Counted from the stretch's first letter, positions 22,338-29,418 are shown. The stretch: DNA of 55,386 bases from Azospirillum sp. 51_20 (GCA_963600185.1 CAVCAF010000001.1:1-55386); one strand, 5' to 3'. Translations and numbers: made by a program. Notes: generated from the sequence alone by a model not told the origin.

Positions 22338-23101
22338 TGCAAGGGCTCTTCGACACACACGCACATTTTCCCCTTGATAGGGAAGATACAGTTGATGCAC
22401 TAAAGCGTGCGAAGTTGGCGGGTGTGGAAGAAATCCTCGCAGTCGGCGGTGATAATGACCTAAACCGCGCGGCGAAAATTGCCGCGGAGGTCGTGGGTGG
22501 AGCAAGTGCCGATTTGCCCAAGGTTTATTTGGCGCAGGGCTACGATATGTCGTCCGTCGCGATGGAGCGTCCCAAAGTAGATTACACGCGTTTAACGGCA
22601 GTCGGGGAGCTGGGGCTCGATTATTCCCATGGCGAGACCAATCGCGCGGCACAATGCCAGCTTCTCGCGTCGCAATTAGAAGACGCGCGGCATTATGATT
22701 TGCCCGTAATAATCCACACCCGTGAAGCGGACGCGGATACCCTTGGCGTTTTGCGGGAAGTCCCCTCGCGAGGAGTTATCCATTGCTTTACGGGTACGCC
22801 CACTTTTTGCCGCGAATTACTCGATTTAGGTTTTTATATCTCAATTTCGGGGATTGTCACCTTTAAGAAGGCGGAAAATGTGCGTGAGAGTGCCCGCTAT
22901 GTGCCTGATGATCGGCTTTTAATTGAGACGGACTCCCCCTATCTCGCGCCCATCCCTTATCGCGGCAAGCAGAATGAACCCGCGTTCATCGTGGAAACGG
23001 CACGCTATCTCGCGAACCTACGCGGCACTTCATTTGACTCCCTCGCCACGCTCACCACCACCAACGCCCACAACTGCTTTGCGACAACGGGGGCGAGATG
23101 A
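22337..23101 (+). CDS. tatD: TatD family metal-dependent hydrolase
   Basis: FDTHAH, GE.GLDY, IHTREA, HCF and ETDSPYL motifs are present. The start is GTG. Confidence 0.9.
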   Translation: MQGLFDTHAHFPLDREDTVDALKRAKLAGVEEILAVGGDNDLNRAAKIAAEVVGGASADLPKVYLAQGYDMSSVAMERPKVDYTRLTAVGELGLDYSHGETNRAAQCQLLASQLEDARHYDLPVIIHTREADADTLGVLREVPSRGVIHCFTGTPTFCRELLDLGFYISISGIVTFKKAENVRESARYVPDDRLLIETDSPYLAPIPYRGKQNEPAFIVETARYLANLRGTSFDSLATLTTTNAHNCFATTGAR

Positions 23102-24108
23102 TATACGACGCTTTTACATTCTTTAATGAATTAGACTTACTGGAGATTCGGCTTAATACGCTCGCCTCCGTAGTTGATAAGTTCGTAATAGCCGAAGCGA
23201 CGCGCACCCACCGCGGCAAACCCAAGCAACTTTTGTTTGAAGCTAACAAATCGCGCTTTAGTGCGTTTCTTCCGAAGATTATCTACATTAAGGTAGACGA
23301 TCTACTCTCAGAAGAAGAGATAAATAAAGACCCCTATAATCTTGCTTGGGTGAATGAGAATCGTCAGCGGAATGCCCTTAAGCGTGGTTTAATAGAGGCG
23401 CGCGCGAATGATATAATTTTGCTGTCCGATTTGGATGAGATACCGCGCCCCGAAATAGTTGCGCAATTGGAGTCCGTCCTTGATGGAAGTACACGCGGCG
23501 TACGGTTTAGGATGTCCGCTTATTACTATTATCTAAACTATCTTAATTATACAAAACCCGTTTGGGAAATGGGCACATTTGCCGCGCGCTACAGGGTGTT
23601 TGGCGATAATGCCTATCTCAGCCGAACACTTATGGGGCGCTTCACACCTGAGTCTGAAAATCGCGGCGCTACTATGCAACGGCTCCGCTTTATGCCTGCG
23701 GATAGGGACTTGCCGCACGCGGGTTGGCATTTCTCGTACTTGGGAGGCATAGAGGCGATTGAGAATAAATTGCGGTCTTTCTCACATTCTGAGTTTAGTG
23801 CGATACCGCGTCCTGTTTTAGAGCAAAGTATCCGTAAGGGGCGCGATCCATTTGGACGCGGGGAGATGTTTTTTGGCGAGGTGATAGACGATAGCTTCCC
23901 ACGGTATGTGAGAGAAAATCAAGATAAACTTGCCGCCTTAATTTTTAAGGTGGACGCGGACTATCTCGCGCGGACAGCATTCCCGCGGCGGATAGCGAAG
24001 TTAAGGGGGCGCTTGCATACTTTTCTTGTGCGTATAATCCCACAAAAGTGGGTGCCGTCAATATTGCGTGTGCGCGAAGCCTTGCTTAAAAAGTTAGGTA
24101 GGCTATGA
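23098..24108 (+). CDS. glycosyltransferase family 17-like (GnT-III-like) protein
   Basis: The N-terminus MIYDAFTFFNELDLLEIRLNTL...VDKFVIAEATRTH..KPK and the SDLDEIP motif are typical of bacterial GT17 homologues. Confidence 0.75.
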   Translation: MIYDAFTFFNELDLLEIRLNTLASVVDKFVIAEATRTHRGKPKQLLFEANKSRFSAFLPKIIYIKVDDLLSEEEINKDPYNLAWVNENRQRNALKRGLIEARANDIILLSDLDEIPRPEIVAQLESVLDGSTRGVRFRMSAYYYYLNYLNYTKPVWEMGTFAARYRVFGDNAYLSRTLMGRFTPESENRGATMQRLRFMPADRDLPHAGWHFSYLGGIEAIENKLRSFSHSEFSAIPRPVLEQSIRKGRDPFGRGEMFFGEVIDDSFPRYVRENQDKLAALIFKVDADYLARTAFPRRIAKLRGRLHTFLVRIIPQKWVPSILRVREALLKKLGRL

Positions 24109-25394
24109 CCCCAAGTTGCCATAGACCTGTTAAGGAGCGGATGACGCGGCGGTGTCCGTCACATGATTATTCGGTGCGCGGCGTTTATATGATTACGACC
24201 CAGCTCGCGGTGCGGGAGCCGAAGTTGGGTACGCTTGAGCCGATTCCGTGCGGGGAATGGTGCGTGAGGCCGAGTGCGCTTGGCTGGAAGGTTCTTGCTT
24301 GCTGGGAGGCTATCCCTAAACACTGGCCGCAGGTTAAACTTATTGCCCACCAACTCATGCCTGACCACTTTCATGGGCTTTTATTTGTGAAGGAAGATTT
24401 ACCAATCGTCTCGGGACGGCAGAAGGTACTTGGGGATATCATGCGCGGCTTTAAGGCGGGGTGCCGCGAAGTTGGTTGGCAGGCGGGCTTTACGGACTCC
24501 CTCCTCAAGCGCGAAGGGCAACTCGCACAACTCAGGCGCTACATCGCCGATAATCCGCGGCGGTTAGCCGAGAAGCGGCGACATAAGGCGTATTTTAAGG
24601 TCGTAGAAGATTTGGCAATAGAGTTGGGCGGGGGCGTATGCGGTTTGTTTGCGGGGCTCGGGAATGCCGCGCTCGCGAATAAAGTGCCGCGGGTTTATGT
24701 GCAGTGTTCGCGCAAGGACTTCGCATATAAACATACGCGCCTTGAGAGTGGCAATTGGCGCATTGAGCGCAACGAGAAAGGCGCGGCACTTGTTGACTTT
24801 GAAACGCCTACTTTTAAAGAGAAAGCGGCGCAGTTTTTAGAAGCTGTAAAGAAGGGCGCGGTGCTGGTGAGCCCCTGTATCTCGCATGGCGAGAAAGAAA
24901 TCATACGCCGCGCATTTGAGGCGGGCGGTAGTGTAATTTGTCTGCGAAATAAGGGTTTTGGTAAACTAGAGAAACCCATGGGCAAGATGTTTGACCTCTG
25001 TGCCTCGGGGCGACTCTTATTGCTCGCGCCAAAGAATTGGCTCTATACAATGAGTAAAAAGCCAATAAGCCGCGAAGACGCGCTTGTATTAAATACGCTC
25101 ACCCAATTACTCGCGGACAGTGAGGTCGTGGTTAATTATAAGGGTCGGGTACCCAATGGGCTTGGGGCTTTGTGTGCCCAAGCGGTAGATAGCCCTATGT
25201 TAGAGGCGATAATAAATAGCGCCATTTCTGGCGCTAAACCTAACGCCCCCACACCGCCAAGTGACCTGCCCCGCGTATCGCCGCCGTTAACTCAAGCTCA
25301 AACGCGCGTAAACGAGGCTAAAGCCCCGCCCCACCCCCGTGTTGTGCCGTTAGGTTCTGCCGCGGAAACGCGGCAGTTAGGAGCCTTCGTATGA
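24105..25394 (+). CDS. RayT/IS200-like (COG1943, HUH Y1-transposase fold) domain protein with an approx 260-aa C-terminal extension
   Basis: LMPDHFHGLLFV is the HUH motif, alongside WQAGFTDSLL and RRYIADNPRRL. The C-terminal part (GAVLVSPCISHGEKEIIRRAFEAGGSVICLRNKGFG) looks DprA/SLOG-Rossmann-like by eye. The last approx 20 codons run through a REP-like hairpin. Confidence 0.65.
   Translation: MTPSCHRPVKERMTRRCPSHDYSVRGVYMITTQLAVREPKLGTLEPIPCGEWCVRPSALGWKVLACWEAIPKHWPQVKLIAHQLMPDHFHGLLFVKEDLPIVSGRQKVLGDIMRGFKAGCREVGWQAGFTDSLLKREGQLAQLRRYIADNPRRLAEKRRHKAYFKVVEDLAIELGGGVCGLFAGLGNAALANKVPRVYVQCSRKDFAYKHTRLESGNWRIERNEKGAALVDFETPTFKEKAAQFLEAVKKGAVLVSPCISHGEKEIIRRAFEAGGSVICLRNKGFGKLEKPMGKMFDLCASGRLLLLAPKNWLYTMSKKPISREDALVLNTLTQLLADSEVVVNYKGRVPNGLGALCAQAVDSPMLEAIINSAISGAKPNAPTPPSDLPRVSPPLTQAQTRVNEAKAPPHPRVVPLGSAAETRQLGAFV
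25313..25379. repeat. REP-like repeat copy A (CGAGGCTAAAG ... GTGCCGTTAGGTTCTGCCGCGGAAACGCGGCAGTTA)
   Basis: The hairpin CTGCCGCG-GAAA-CGCGGCAG lies at 25357-25376. It is near-identical to 28006-28041. Confidence 0.85.
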
Positions 25395-26155
25395 CCCAGC
25401 CCCTAATCATCTCGGTTGTACGCGACTTCGCGATGTATGAGCGCTCGTTAGGCTCAAACCCCAATTGCCGCGGTTGCCAGCTTATACCTTTAGATAACCG
25501 CGCCAAAAATGAGGGGCTACCCAAACGCTATAACGCGTTTCTCGCCTCGCGTCCGTCTTCAGAAGAGGCGTGGTATATTTTTTGCCATGAGGACTTCGAA
25601 CCGCGCGAGCCGCTTTTGCCGCGGTTAGCCAACCTTGACCCAAACGCCATTTGGGGCGTAATCGGGGCCGTCACACGCGTTAGATTTGGTCTCTATCATC
25701 AATGGCTTCTTCTTGGGCAAATCACCGAATGCAACAAAGATGGCTCAAACGAGCACCCCCTCGGCGAAAAAGTCGCGCTTGGTACACCTGTTGAGACCTT
25801 TGATTGCCAATGCCTAATCGTACACTCTTCACTCATTAGGCGACTCAACTTAAGCTTTGACGAGCACCTAACCTTTGACCTTTATGTGGAAGACTTTTGT
25901 ATGGCTGCTGCCGCGAAAGGGGTTGCCGCGCGTATCTTGCCGCTCGCGTGTCGTCACTGGAGCAATGGTAAGACGCAGCCGCGCTATTATGTCCAAGAAG
26001 CGTATCTCGCTAAGAAGTATCCGAATGTGTGTTTTACGGGCATTATATCGTGTATGCTTGGGGGTAAAGTGCTTTGGGGACGCCGCTTAACGATTTTTCT
26101 ACGGCGTTATGTGCGCGACTCAATCTTGAAGGTCGTCCACGCCTTGTTTAAGTAA
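25391..26155 (+). CDS. putative GT-A-fold glycosyltransferase-like protein
   Basis: LIISVVRD...YNAFL...WYIFCHEDFEP...FDCQCLIVH...FDLYVEDFC...CRHWSNG matches the pattern of small LOS/LPS-locus glycosyltransferases. This is a by-eye call. Confidence 0.5.
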   Translation: MTQPLIISVVRDFAMYERSLGSNPNCRGCQLIPLDNRAKNEGLPKRYNAFLASRPSSEEAWYIFCHEDFEPREPLLPRLANLDPNAIWGVIGAVTRVRFGLYHQWLLLGQITECNKDGSNEHPLGEKVALGTPVETFDCQCLIVHSSLIRRLNLSFDEHLTFDLYVEDFCMAAAAKGVAARILPLACRHWSNGKTQPRYYVQEAYLAKKYPNVCFTGIISCMLGGKVLWGRRLTIFLRRYVRDSILKVVHALFK

Positions 26156-27926: not shown

Positions 27927-28041
27927 CGAGGCTAAAGTAGTGCCCTTACCTAGTGTAGTGCCGTTAGGTTCTGCTGCGTTTGAAGTTGCGACCTTACCCA
28001 GTGTCGCACCGTTAGGTTCTGCCGCGGAAACGCGGCAGTTA
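27927..28041. repeat. REP-like repeat copy B (two sub-units, the second carrying the hairpin)
   Basis: CGAGGCTAAAG lies at 27927. CCTTACC(T/C)AGTGT.G..CCGTTAGGTTCTGC occurs twice, about 46 nt apart. The hairpin CTGCCGCGGAAACGCGGCAG lies at 28019-28038. Confidence 0.85.
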
Positions 28042-28069: not shown

Positions 28070-28143
28070 GTAGAAGGGGGTGGCGCTCTTACTGGGAGAG
28101 GCACCCCCTCTTGCGTAGGAGGGGGTGGCAGTTCTACTGGGAC
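28070..28143. repeat. 45-nt tandem duplication (GTAG(A/G)AGGGGGTGGC..T.CT.ACTGGGA)
   Basis: The units start at 28070 and 28115. Confidence 0.8.
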
Positions 28144-28331
28144 GGGTACCCGCTCGCGCCGTCTTTCGCGTCATCTTGGGCTACTTTCCAAAACCTTGTC
28201 AAGTTTTTTTTAAAACTTTTTTCACCTGTGATGGGTAGAAAATGGCACTTAGCCATCTTCGCGTTTTTCGCACCCAAACTCACTGCGGAATTCGCGTCCA
28301 AACCGCGGCACTTACCGCGGCAGATTGGCAA

Positions 28332-29341: not shown

Positions 29342-29418
29342 GGGCTATTAGCTCAGTTGGTTAGAGCGCTTCCTTGACATGGAAGAGGTCAGTAGTTCGA
29401 ATCTACTATAGCCCACCA
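29342..29418 (+). tRNA. tRNA-Val (anticodon GAC), CCA encoded
   Basis: The cloverleaf was folded by hand. The acceptor stem is GGGCTAT/ATAGCCC, the D-arm is GCTC-AGTTGGTTA-GAGC, the anticodon stem is CTTCC/GGAAG with loop TTGACAT, and the T-arm is AGTAG-TTCGAAT-CTACT. Confidence 0.92.

Follow-up and report, generated by a model that had tools for sequence, protein, structure and literature searches.

The question raised by one gene of Azospirillum sp. 51_20 is what kind of protein it encodes: an enzyme that would act on DNA hairpins carried within its own coding sequence, or something else. The gene, here called X, is an open reading frame (ORF) at 24105-25394 (+) of a 55,386-nucleotide (nt) stretch (GCA_963600185.1 CAVCAF010000001.1:1-55386; the whole stretch is referred to as the window). 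Its 429-residue product, P0001, to which all residue numbers refer, combines an N-terminal HUH domain like that of the RAYTs (tyrosine transposases associated with repetitive extragenic palindromes, REPs), a predicted DprA-like domain and a tail encoded by a REPIN, a REP doublet. Characterised RAYTs are small, single-domain proteins, and to our knowledge their action on REPINs in the cell is still poorly understood. We regard X as probably a RAYT-like TnpA_Y1 class 2 enzyme, in permanent fusion with a DprA-like Rossmann domain, that would act on cognate hairpins.

The ORF and the motifs by which the original prediction had recognised a RayT-like HUH protein were all present, with LMPDHFHGLLFV at residues 84-95, WQAGFTDSLL at 125-134 and RRYIADNPRRL at 144-154. 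A Y1 HUH (RAYT-like) domain at residues ~13-165 (24141-24599, +) was indicated by Foldseek, by the NCBIfam model NF047646 at a sub-threshold 27 bits and by hhalign to Escherichia coli RayT. In the Foldseek search with the full-length AlphaFold2 (AF2) model (pLDDT 85, pTM 0.79), the best PDB match was 4er8, E. coli RayT with a REP hairpin (E 1.1e-4, TM score on the target 0.56), followed by 2xma, 2xm3, 2a6m, 2f4f and 2ec2, which are the transposases of ISDra2, IS608 and IS200 and the Sulfolobus TnpA. Similarly, hhalign of X against E. coli RayT (NC_000913) placed PDHFH on PEHMH, GWQ on IWQ and YIADNP on YIYINP, an alignment that was statistically weak (P = 0.0096). The corresponding motifs are the HuH motif H88-F89-H90, within MPDHFHG (24366-24374, +), the W motif W125-Q126 (24477-24482, +), and the catalytic-Tyr motif Y146-I-A-D-N150-P151 (24540-24557, +). 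Far from being non-conserved or degenerate, H88, H90 and Y146 were invariant across 75 relatives, as were N150 and P151, and W125 was conserved in at least 90%. The signatures of class 2 TnpA_Y1 proteins are W[QE] and Y---NP, those of the IS200 transposases Y---Q (PMC6006769, Table 1); X has the WQ and Y---NP of class 2. The N-terminal domain therefore has a Y1 HUH fold with an intact HuH, W and Y---NP set.

Library searches were less sensitive to this domain. P0001 gave no match to Pfam, only 11 of the 75 relatives matched PF01797 (Y1_Tnp), all weakly, and a profile of the 75 relatives run against the PDB touched ISDra2 TnpA weakly, at the HuH motif. The poor scores against the curated models for RAYT and Y1_Tnp would suit a protein that uses its HUH fold for binding DNA only, as a regulator or structural factor, and the same genome does hold a dead relative, an ORF on contig C173 that has lost the HuH histidines. 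The invariance of H88, H90, Y146 and N150, together with the HuH and Y..NP motifs kept by every distant full-length representative inspected (see below), makes such a non-catalytic role highly improbable.

The second part of the protein, residues ~166-365 (24600-25199, +), carries the motifs QCSR (200-203), SPCISHGE (256-263), KP (290-291) and LAP (307-309), and the segment GAVLVSPCISHGEKEIIRRAFEAGGSVICLRNKGFG begins at residue 251. Modelled alone from 42 sequences (m590ef37f7361), it gave a Rossmann domain with a pLDDT of 89 and a pTM of 0.86. The suggestion, made by eye, that this region resembles DprA/SLOG was borne out by structure alone: the nine best PDB matches were all DprA or ShosA (probability 0.82-1.00, TM score 0.43-0.51, E 8.5e-3 to 7e-2), a moderate match, and beyond the ninth the probability was 0.14 or lower. 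In the search with the full-length model, ShosA (8zva) and DprA (4ljk, 5mll and 3maj) ranked directly after the transposases. At the level of sequence, nothing significant linked the domain to DprA in phmmer, in hmmsearch against the PDB, in Pfam (PF02481 included) or in hhalign; aligned with genuine DprA domains, 24 in all and taken from the same genome and from relatives, it gave P = 0.12, against 0.19 for a reversed control. The genome's own canonical DprA lies on contig C38. On the evidence of the model, we call the domain DprA-like by fold and not a member of the DprA family.

DprA (PF02481) and ShosA of the ShosTA system (8zva) thus provide, with their Rossmann-type fold, the only convincing structural match for this domain. 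Both bind single-stranded DNA (ssDNA), and for ShosA the Rossmann domain itself binds it in vitro (PMC11961720). X differs from them in having no sterile alpha motif (SAM) domain, no DprA C-terminal domain, no ShosT-like partner gene and no significant profile similarity; where DprA has a SAM domain N-terminal to the Rossmann fold, X has the HUH domain. The extension of ~260 residues announced by the original prediction does exist, but it consists of ~200 conserved residues plus the REPIN-encoded tail. Of C66, C201, C258 and C299, which might form a Zn or Fe-S site, C258 is replaced in wider relatives (SPSIS, SPAIS, SPRIS) and C201 in some.

The joining of both domains is not peculiar to this genome. 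A word-indexed search returned at least 973 matches of ~360-540 aa, the few named ones being called 'hypothetical protein'. Species-representative genomes held at least 529 loci, in Kiritimatiellae, Lentisphaerae/Victivallales, Verrucomicrobia, Planctomycetaceae and many Bacteroidales, and cultured carriers include Prevotella lacticifex JCM 34664 and Hallella absiana YH-C38. An exhaustive search with the C-domain profile yielded 1,295 clusters at 50% identity, of which 870 reached E <=1e-10; Kiritimatiellae, Lentisphaerae, Verrucomicrobia and Bacteroidales were represented. In 27 of 27 full-length matches examined, the C-domain was preceded by the HuH and Y..NP motifs, and the three short matches examined were all fragments. 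At 90% identity, the Bacteroidales branch by itself comprised at least 4,228 clusters; two of these bear the IMG name 'REP element-mobilizing transposase RayT', which we take to be a COG1943-type call covering the N-terminal domain only. Judged from the sequences, the fusion is obligate and widespread. The extension is therefore common, but the refutation foreseen by the original prediction, that it is a common and known one, is only half borne out: none of the libraries searched has a family or domain model specific to the fusion, and we found no paper describing it.

The remainder of the protein, residues ~366-429 (25200-25391, +), is a disordered P/A-rich tail (pLDDT <50 from residue 382) that is a translated REPIN. 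In the family alignment it was common only to P0001, P0002 (91% identical) and P0004 (64%). The left REP unit (25218-25246, -) consists of the hairpin AGCGCCA-TTTC-TGGCGCT (25218-25235) followed by AACCTAAC, in inverse orientation, with an ssDNA folding energy of -9.4 kcal/mol (z = -5.0). In the right unit (25349-25376, +), GTTAGGTT is followed by CTGCCGCG-GAAA-CGCGGCAG (25357-25376), the hairpin that the tail had correctly been said to read through, and the value was -12.2 kcal/mol (z = -4.6). The tail DNA aligned column for column with intergenic REPINs over both the inverted and the forward unit. Its spacer (25250-25345) is 60 nt (20 codons) longer than that of the P0002 ortholog (L036, 3230-3300), whose tail REPIN has the canonical spacing; the difference in the window is an in-frame indel within the repeat. 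Two further REP units (27963-28038, +) sit 2.6 kb downstream of X, one degenerate, with GTTAGGTT at 27963, and one exact, with GTTAGGTT at 28011 and its hairpin at 28019-28038. The exact 20-mer hairpin occurred twice in the window, against 0 expected. Rfam recognised no RNA family at the hairpins, its sole match in the window being a tRNA (29342-29415). Near these units, at 28070-28155, lies a separate tandem pair of ~41 nt (GTAGAAGGGGGTGGC...CACCCCCTC), with similar copies on contigs C119, C3, C54, C91 and C21; it is another dispersed repeat family.

As a dispersed REP, the exact hairpin had to be rejected, since the 20-mer occurs only twice in the whole genome; a search with tag and core revealed the real family. 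A tagged unit was defined as GTTAGGTT-N4-7-GCGGAAACGC with at most one substitution per block, and was sought in the assembly, which is 89.6% complete and in 203 contigs. The core GCGGAAACGC was found 74 times, against 4.6 expected from base composition, and among perfect hairpins with a 7-bp stem and a 4-nt loop, GAAA/TTTC loops dominated (63 of ~250). There were 63 tagged units, 48 of them within 400 nt of a contig end, so that the repeats break the assembly and their true number is higher. All 16 intact pairs were head-to-head, with spacers of 44-46 nt, as in REPINs; none of 10 intact internal pairs that were checked overlapped an ORF of 120 aa or more, and the canonical REPIN as ssDNA gave -43.9 kcal/mol (z = -7.7). 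The dominant form of the unit is GTTAGGTTGCGGAGCGGAAACGCTCCGC, that of the X locus GTTAGGTTCTGCCGCGGAAACGCGGCAG. On the 55-kb contig C1, the sole units matching the pattern were the forward unit of the tail and the pair at 27963-28038.

This repeat family is confined to the species: the tagged pattern was counted 59 times in this genome, whereas 40 relatives, of which 24 belong to the same genus, had no copy. The ortholog of X is just as restricted to its lineage, and in those relatives the best match was 50% identical. The tail of X is thus a REPIN of a dispersed repeat family specific to the species, and the REPtron-like arrangement proposed by the original prediction emerges stronger than the window sequence had suggested in that the hairpins of X belong to a genome-wide REPIN family. 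From the tag, loop and geometry that they have in common, we infer that these repeats are cognate to X.

X is single-copy in this genome, with one distant paralog of 341 aa (C135:348-1373, -; L040 = C135:1-2750); no further Y1 gene with an intact HUH motif was found in the assembly. In this paralog the HuH and Y..NP motifs are intact and the C-domain has diverged, and it has GC-rich hairpins of its own between HuH and Tyr. A 172-aa RayT-like ORF on C173 (L042, C173:804-2783; 35 bits to NF047646) was considered as the true REP enzyme and dismissed, because it no longer has the histidines of HuH (IMPTSLLMLL); most likely it is a relic that has been inactivated.

Hairpins at X were also found across the family. 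In nine loci obtained by exact-protein look-ups, 17 of 20 GAAA/TTTC hairpins lay inside X, and the inserts VSGQAQNRP and CASPETAK of P0055 proved to be GAAA/TTTC hairpin arrays with a 27-nt period, in both orientations. In 80 representative loci, 19 such hairpins were inside X, 9 within 300 nt of it and 2 in the other 605 kb; they were restricted to 6 of the 80 loci, all of the subclade nearest P0001. When any perfect 7-bp hairpin with a loop of 3-6 nt was counted, the density in the 80 loci was 2.83/kb in X versus 0.69/kb outside. The sequence of the hairpin is lineage-specific, with members of several phyla each having a type of their own, and recurs in the gene and in its flanks. A map of 87 loci (the 80 representative ones plus seven fetched earlier) placed 149 in-gene hairpins, from 61 loci, at five surface sites of the model. 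Two of these are the N-terminal extension and the C-terminal tail, and the others are residues 40-59, 110-129 and 170-179; neither the catalytic helix nor the Rossmann core was hit. One locus (L100; G077, C17:7786-9282) carried ~12 copies of TCGCGCA-TGGA-TGCGCGA in 1.5 kb in and around X, and that genome has one copy elsewhere.

In Prevotella genome G078 a hairpin occurred at 14 sites on 13 contigs, against 0 in the control, and tblastn found no X homolog near the 11 other sites that were fetched. These sites (L125-L135) show a ~39-nt palindrome, CCGTYT-GTTGCTGT-NNN-ACAGCAAC-AGACGG; at least 9 of the 11 copies are in-frame inside stop-free frames of 428-862 codons that are dissimilar to X, and they look like intragenic REP insertions. 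Such insertions in unrelated genes would fit an explanation in which the hairpins are passive, surface loops simply tolerating GC-rich inserts while the enzyme acts on unrelated ssDNA, perhaps during repair or at the fork of replication. The presence of hairpins in the neighbours of X in L038, and the fact that in most genomes tested they have not spread, point the same way. This explanation nevertheless seems to us very unlikely, for the hairpins are from 4-fold (any loop) to ~60-fold (GAAA loop) denser in and beside X than in the flanks, one and the same type is found both within the gene and directly beside it and differs between lineages, and a type restricted to the X locus, as in five genomes, is hard to explain without a local source.

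The surroundings of X bear on whether the gene itself is mobile. Upstream lies a GT17 glycosyltransferase gene (23098-24108, +; Pfam PF04724, E 4.6e-29), whose stop overlaps the ATG at 24105, both sharing ATGA at 24105-24108. Downstream, ATGA at 25391-25394 is shared by the stop of X and the start of a 254-aa gene (25391-26155, +), for which Pfam gave no match. The translational coupling read from these junctions agrees with overlaps on both sides, but the upstream one would disappear with a start at 24141. This alternative start, M13 (ATG 24141-24143, +), is preceded by AAGGAG at 24132-24137; family conservation begins there (MTRRC or MGRRC) and extends to near residue 365 in the alignment of 75 relatives, and the 64%-identical ortholog P0004 begins at the equivalent position. 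By these sequence features, M13 is probably the true start.

The orthologs of X lie in a glycan island, in the order TatD-GT17-X in L036, and with X followed by convergent DUF5672 and RgpF genes in L037. The GT17 neighbour is also found beside X homologs in L036 and L101. For its part, the 254-aa gene is absent beside the 64% ortholog (L037), occurs without X in G052 (L027) and is paired with X in G017 (L028); the island is reshuffled at REP positions. No empty site was recovered: the DNA of the GT17 3' end had no match in 60 same-genus genomes, and G052, which has the downstream gene without X, has a different gene upstream. Both junctions of X (24102-24109 and 25388-25395) read TATGACCC. A target-site duplication was considered here and rejected, no such repeat being present at the junctions of six other loci; the double TATGACCC is probably chance plus two Met-Thr starts.

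An autonomous insertion sequence (IS)-like element, in which the gene and flanking hairpins serving as ends would transpose together into operon junctions, could account for the patchy distribution across phyla and the highly varied contexts, for the gene often being tight between unrelated genes with ATGA overlaps, for the direct-orientation hairpin module on both sides of the gene in L105, L090 and L091, and for the repeated junction sequence in the window. Near-identical copies within a genome, however, are missing. X is single-copy here, and the five paralogs in genome G019 are 23-51% identical, with motifs intact in all, a divergence that is RAYT-like rather than IS-like. In addition, orthologs keep their neighbours down to 64% identity, the Tyr motif is the Y---N of class 2 and not the Y---Q of IS200, there is no clean empty site, and the other loci examined are without a junction repeat. 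We therefore hold an IS-like element to be quite unlikely. The pattern is that of RAYTs, with old, diverged, mostly vertically kept copies and not an active IS, in keeping with the earlier view of X as an operon resident.

Other homologs lie in different surroundings. Type I restriction-modification (R-M) operons had the order hsdM-X-hsdS-hsdR in L001 and L009 and hsdM-HEPN-hsdS-X-hsdR in L010, and defence islands contained SIR2 and a Schlafen-like helicase (L006) or ART-PolyVal and Mrr (L004). Translated and judged by eye, the flanks of the C135 paralog resemble the C-terminal end of HsdM and the N-terminal end of HsdS. With ShosA, a component of a defence system, among the best structural matches of the C-domain, these contexts would suit a defence or restriction accessory, an ssDNA nuclease working with R-M or other systems against ssDNA phages, conjugative entry or transforming DNA, the hairpins being incidental. 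The embedding in R-M operons did not hold up as a rule of the family: the sample of long contigs was biased, and in the representative set 6 of the 80 loci had hsd genes within 5 kb, with no R-M genes nearby in the other 74. Among 20 neighbours sampled, the 12 with a Pfam match were housekeeping or carbohydrate genes (GH43, MFS, ClpB, Leu/Phe transferase, LacI, SusF), and PADLOC-DB gave no match for P0001 or three homologs (E up to 1). Moreover, the present copy of X lies in a glycan island syntenic down to 64% identity, and a defence role would leave the matching lineage-specific hairpins and the REPIN population unexplained. We consider it unlikely. In another setting (L012, 7160-10030), a homolog has a Flavodoxin_2 gene on either side (220 and 171 aa), with an overlap of 4 nt with the second.

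Compared with known systems, X is closest to RAYT/TnpA_REP (E. coli RayT/YafM, 4er8), with which it has in common the Y1 HUH fold, the HuH, W[QE] and Y---NP motifs, a low copy number and paralogs that have diverged, REP hairpins at the gene and dispersed head-to-head REPIN doublets. It differs in the ~200 extra conserved residues forming the DprA-like Rossmann domain, in its scores below the NF047646 and PF01797 cut-offs, in the tag, which in RAYT systems is GT[AG]G directly at the hairpin foot and here GTTAGGTT, and in the position of its REPs, inside and downstream of the gene. The extra domains described for TnpA_Y1 proteins are helix-turn-helix (HTH)-like or subclass-specific, none of them DprA-like, and the longest subclass has a median of 325 aa (PMC6006769). 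Subclass 2.4 of TnpA_Y1 (Cyanobacteria, Bacteroidetes and others) likewise has REPs in-frame within the tnpA_REP gene; its members, however, have a median length of 194 aa, lack a distal domain and carry NH[IFV]H and YIxNNP motifs, whereas X has DHFH and YIxDNP and a DprA-like domain, and its family adds four hot spots for hairpins, at the N-terminus, the beta2-beta3 turn, the interdomain turn and the C-terminal tail. With the TnpA of IS200/IS605 elements (IS608, ISDra2), X has the catalytic fold in common, and recognition of ssDNA hairpins would be the expected mode of action; differences are the Y---N in place of Y---Q, the absence of a tnpB partner, copies that are not near-identical, synteny, and neighbours of glycosyltransferase type.

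For an enzyme of the kind we favour, a RAYT-like protein fused to a DprA-like module, the following mechanism can be proposed. The HUH domain would bind ssDNA hairpins, reading the stem-loop and the 5' GTTAGGTT tag, and X would cleave and rejoin ssDNA via a 5'-phosphotyrosine at Y146, with H88, H90 and N150 as ligands of the metal. The DprA-like domain would add ssDNA binding and possibly a coupling to RecA or to the replication fork. Because the enzyme would act mainly near its site of synthesis, hairpins would accumulate at its own locus, where only in-frame insertions in surface loops and termini would survive. In this species the repeat would also have spread genome-wide as REPINs, seeded by X.

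Several observations weigh against this reading. The NF047646 (REP_Tyr_transpos) score of 27.2 bits is far from the cut-off of 80, and that of PF01797 is 12.8 bits against a cut-off of 23. The link to DprA is structural, coming from a model with TM scores of ~0.5 or lower. No REP unit was found upstream of X, which has a REPIN in the 3' tail and two units 2.6 kb downstream; in relatives, hairpins do occur on both flanks. The stems adjacent to X (CTGCCGCG, AGCGCCA) are not those of the dominant dispersed units (CGGAGCG, CGAAGCG and CGGGGCG), and only tag, loop and inner stem are in common. Genome-wide spread was not supported as a general property: five other genomes tested keep their hairpin type at the X locus alone, and in three more it is on 2-4 contigs. 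Spread is therefore the exception, this species being one of the cases, and the hairpins are mainly a local feature of the gene. An unassembled canonical RAYT may also exist, given an assembly that is 89.6% complete and in 203 contigs. Finally, for every member of the family, activity on the hairpins is something that we infer from sequences and models.

A more far-reaching version would make the fusion a self-sufficient machine for cutting and rejoining ssDNA, linked to RecA or the replication fork, whose in-frame hairpins are resident master copies that now and then seed REPINs throughout a genome, as in this species, which by inserting hairpins in-frame remodels the surface loops of its own and of other proteins, and whose DprA-like domain is the missing host-coupling factor behind the action of RAYT-type enzymes in vivo. 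Taken as a whole, we find this version speculative and rather doubtful.

If X is indeed a RAYT-like enzyme fused to a DprA-like domain, the family, whose members number in the thousands among Bacteroidales of gut and rumen and bacteria of the Planctomycetes-Verrucomicrobia-Chlamydiae (PVC) group, would permanently join the catalytic domain of a RAYT with an ssDNA module of DprA type and keep its presumed substrates inside its own gene. This would offer a testable hypothesis of host coupling, via ssDNA or RecA, and natural enzyme-substrate pairs that may be read from the sequence of each locus. There are practical consequences as well: repeats of this kind fragment metagenome assemblies, as the 48 of 63 units at contig ends illustrate, and in-frame low-complexity inserts confuse gene annotation. 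In this species, what appears to be a matched enzyme, together with a REPIN population of ~60 copies, would allow a study of how local hairpins become genome-wide repeats.

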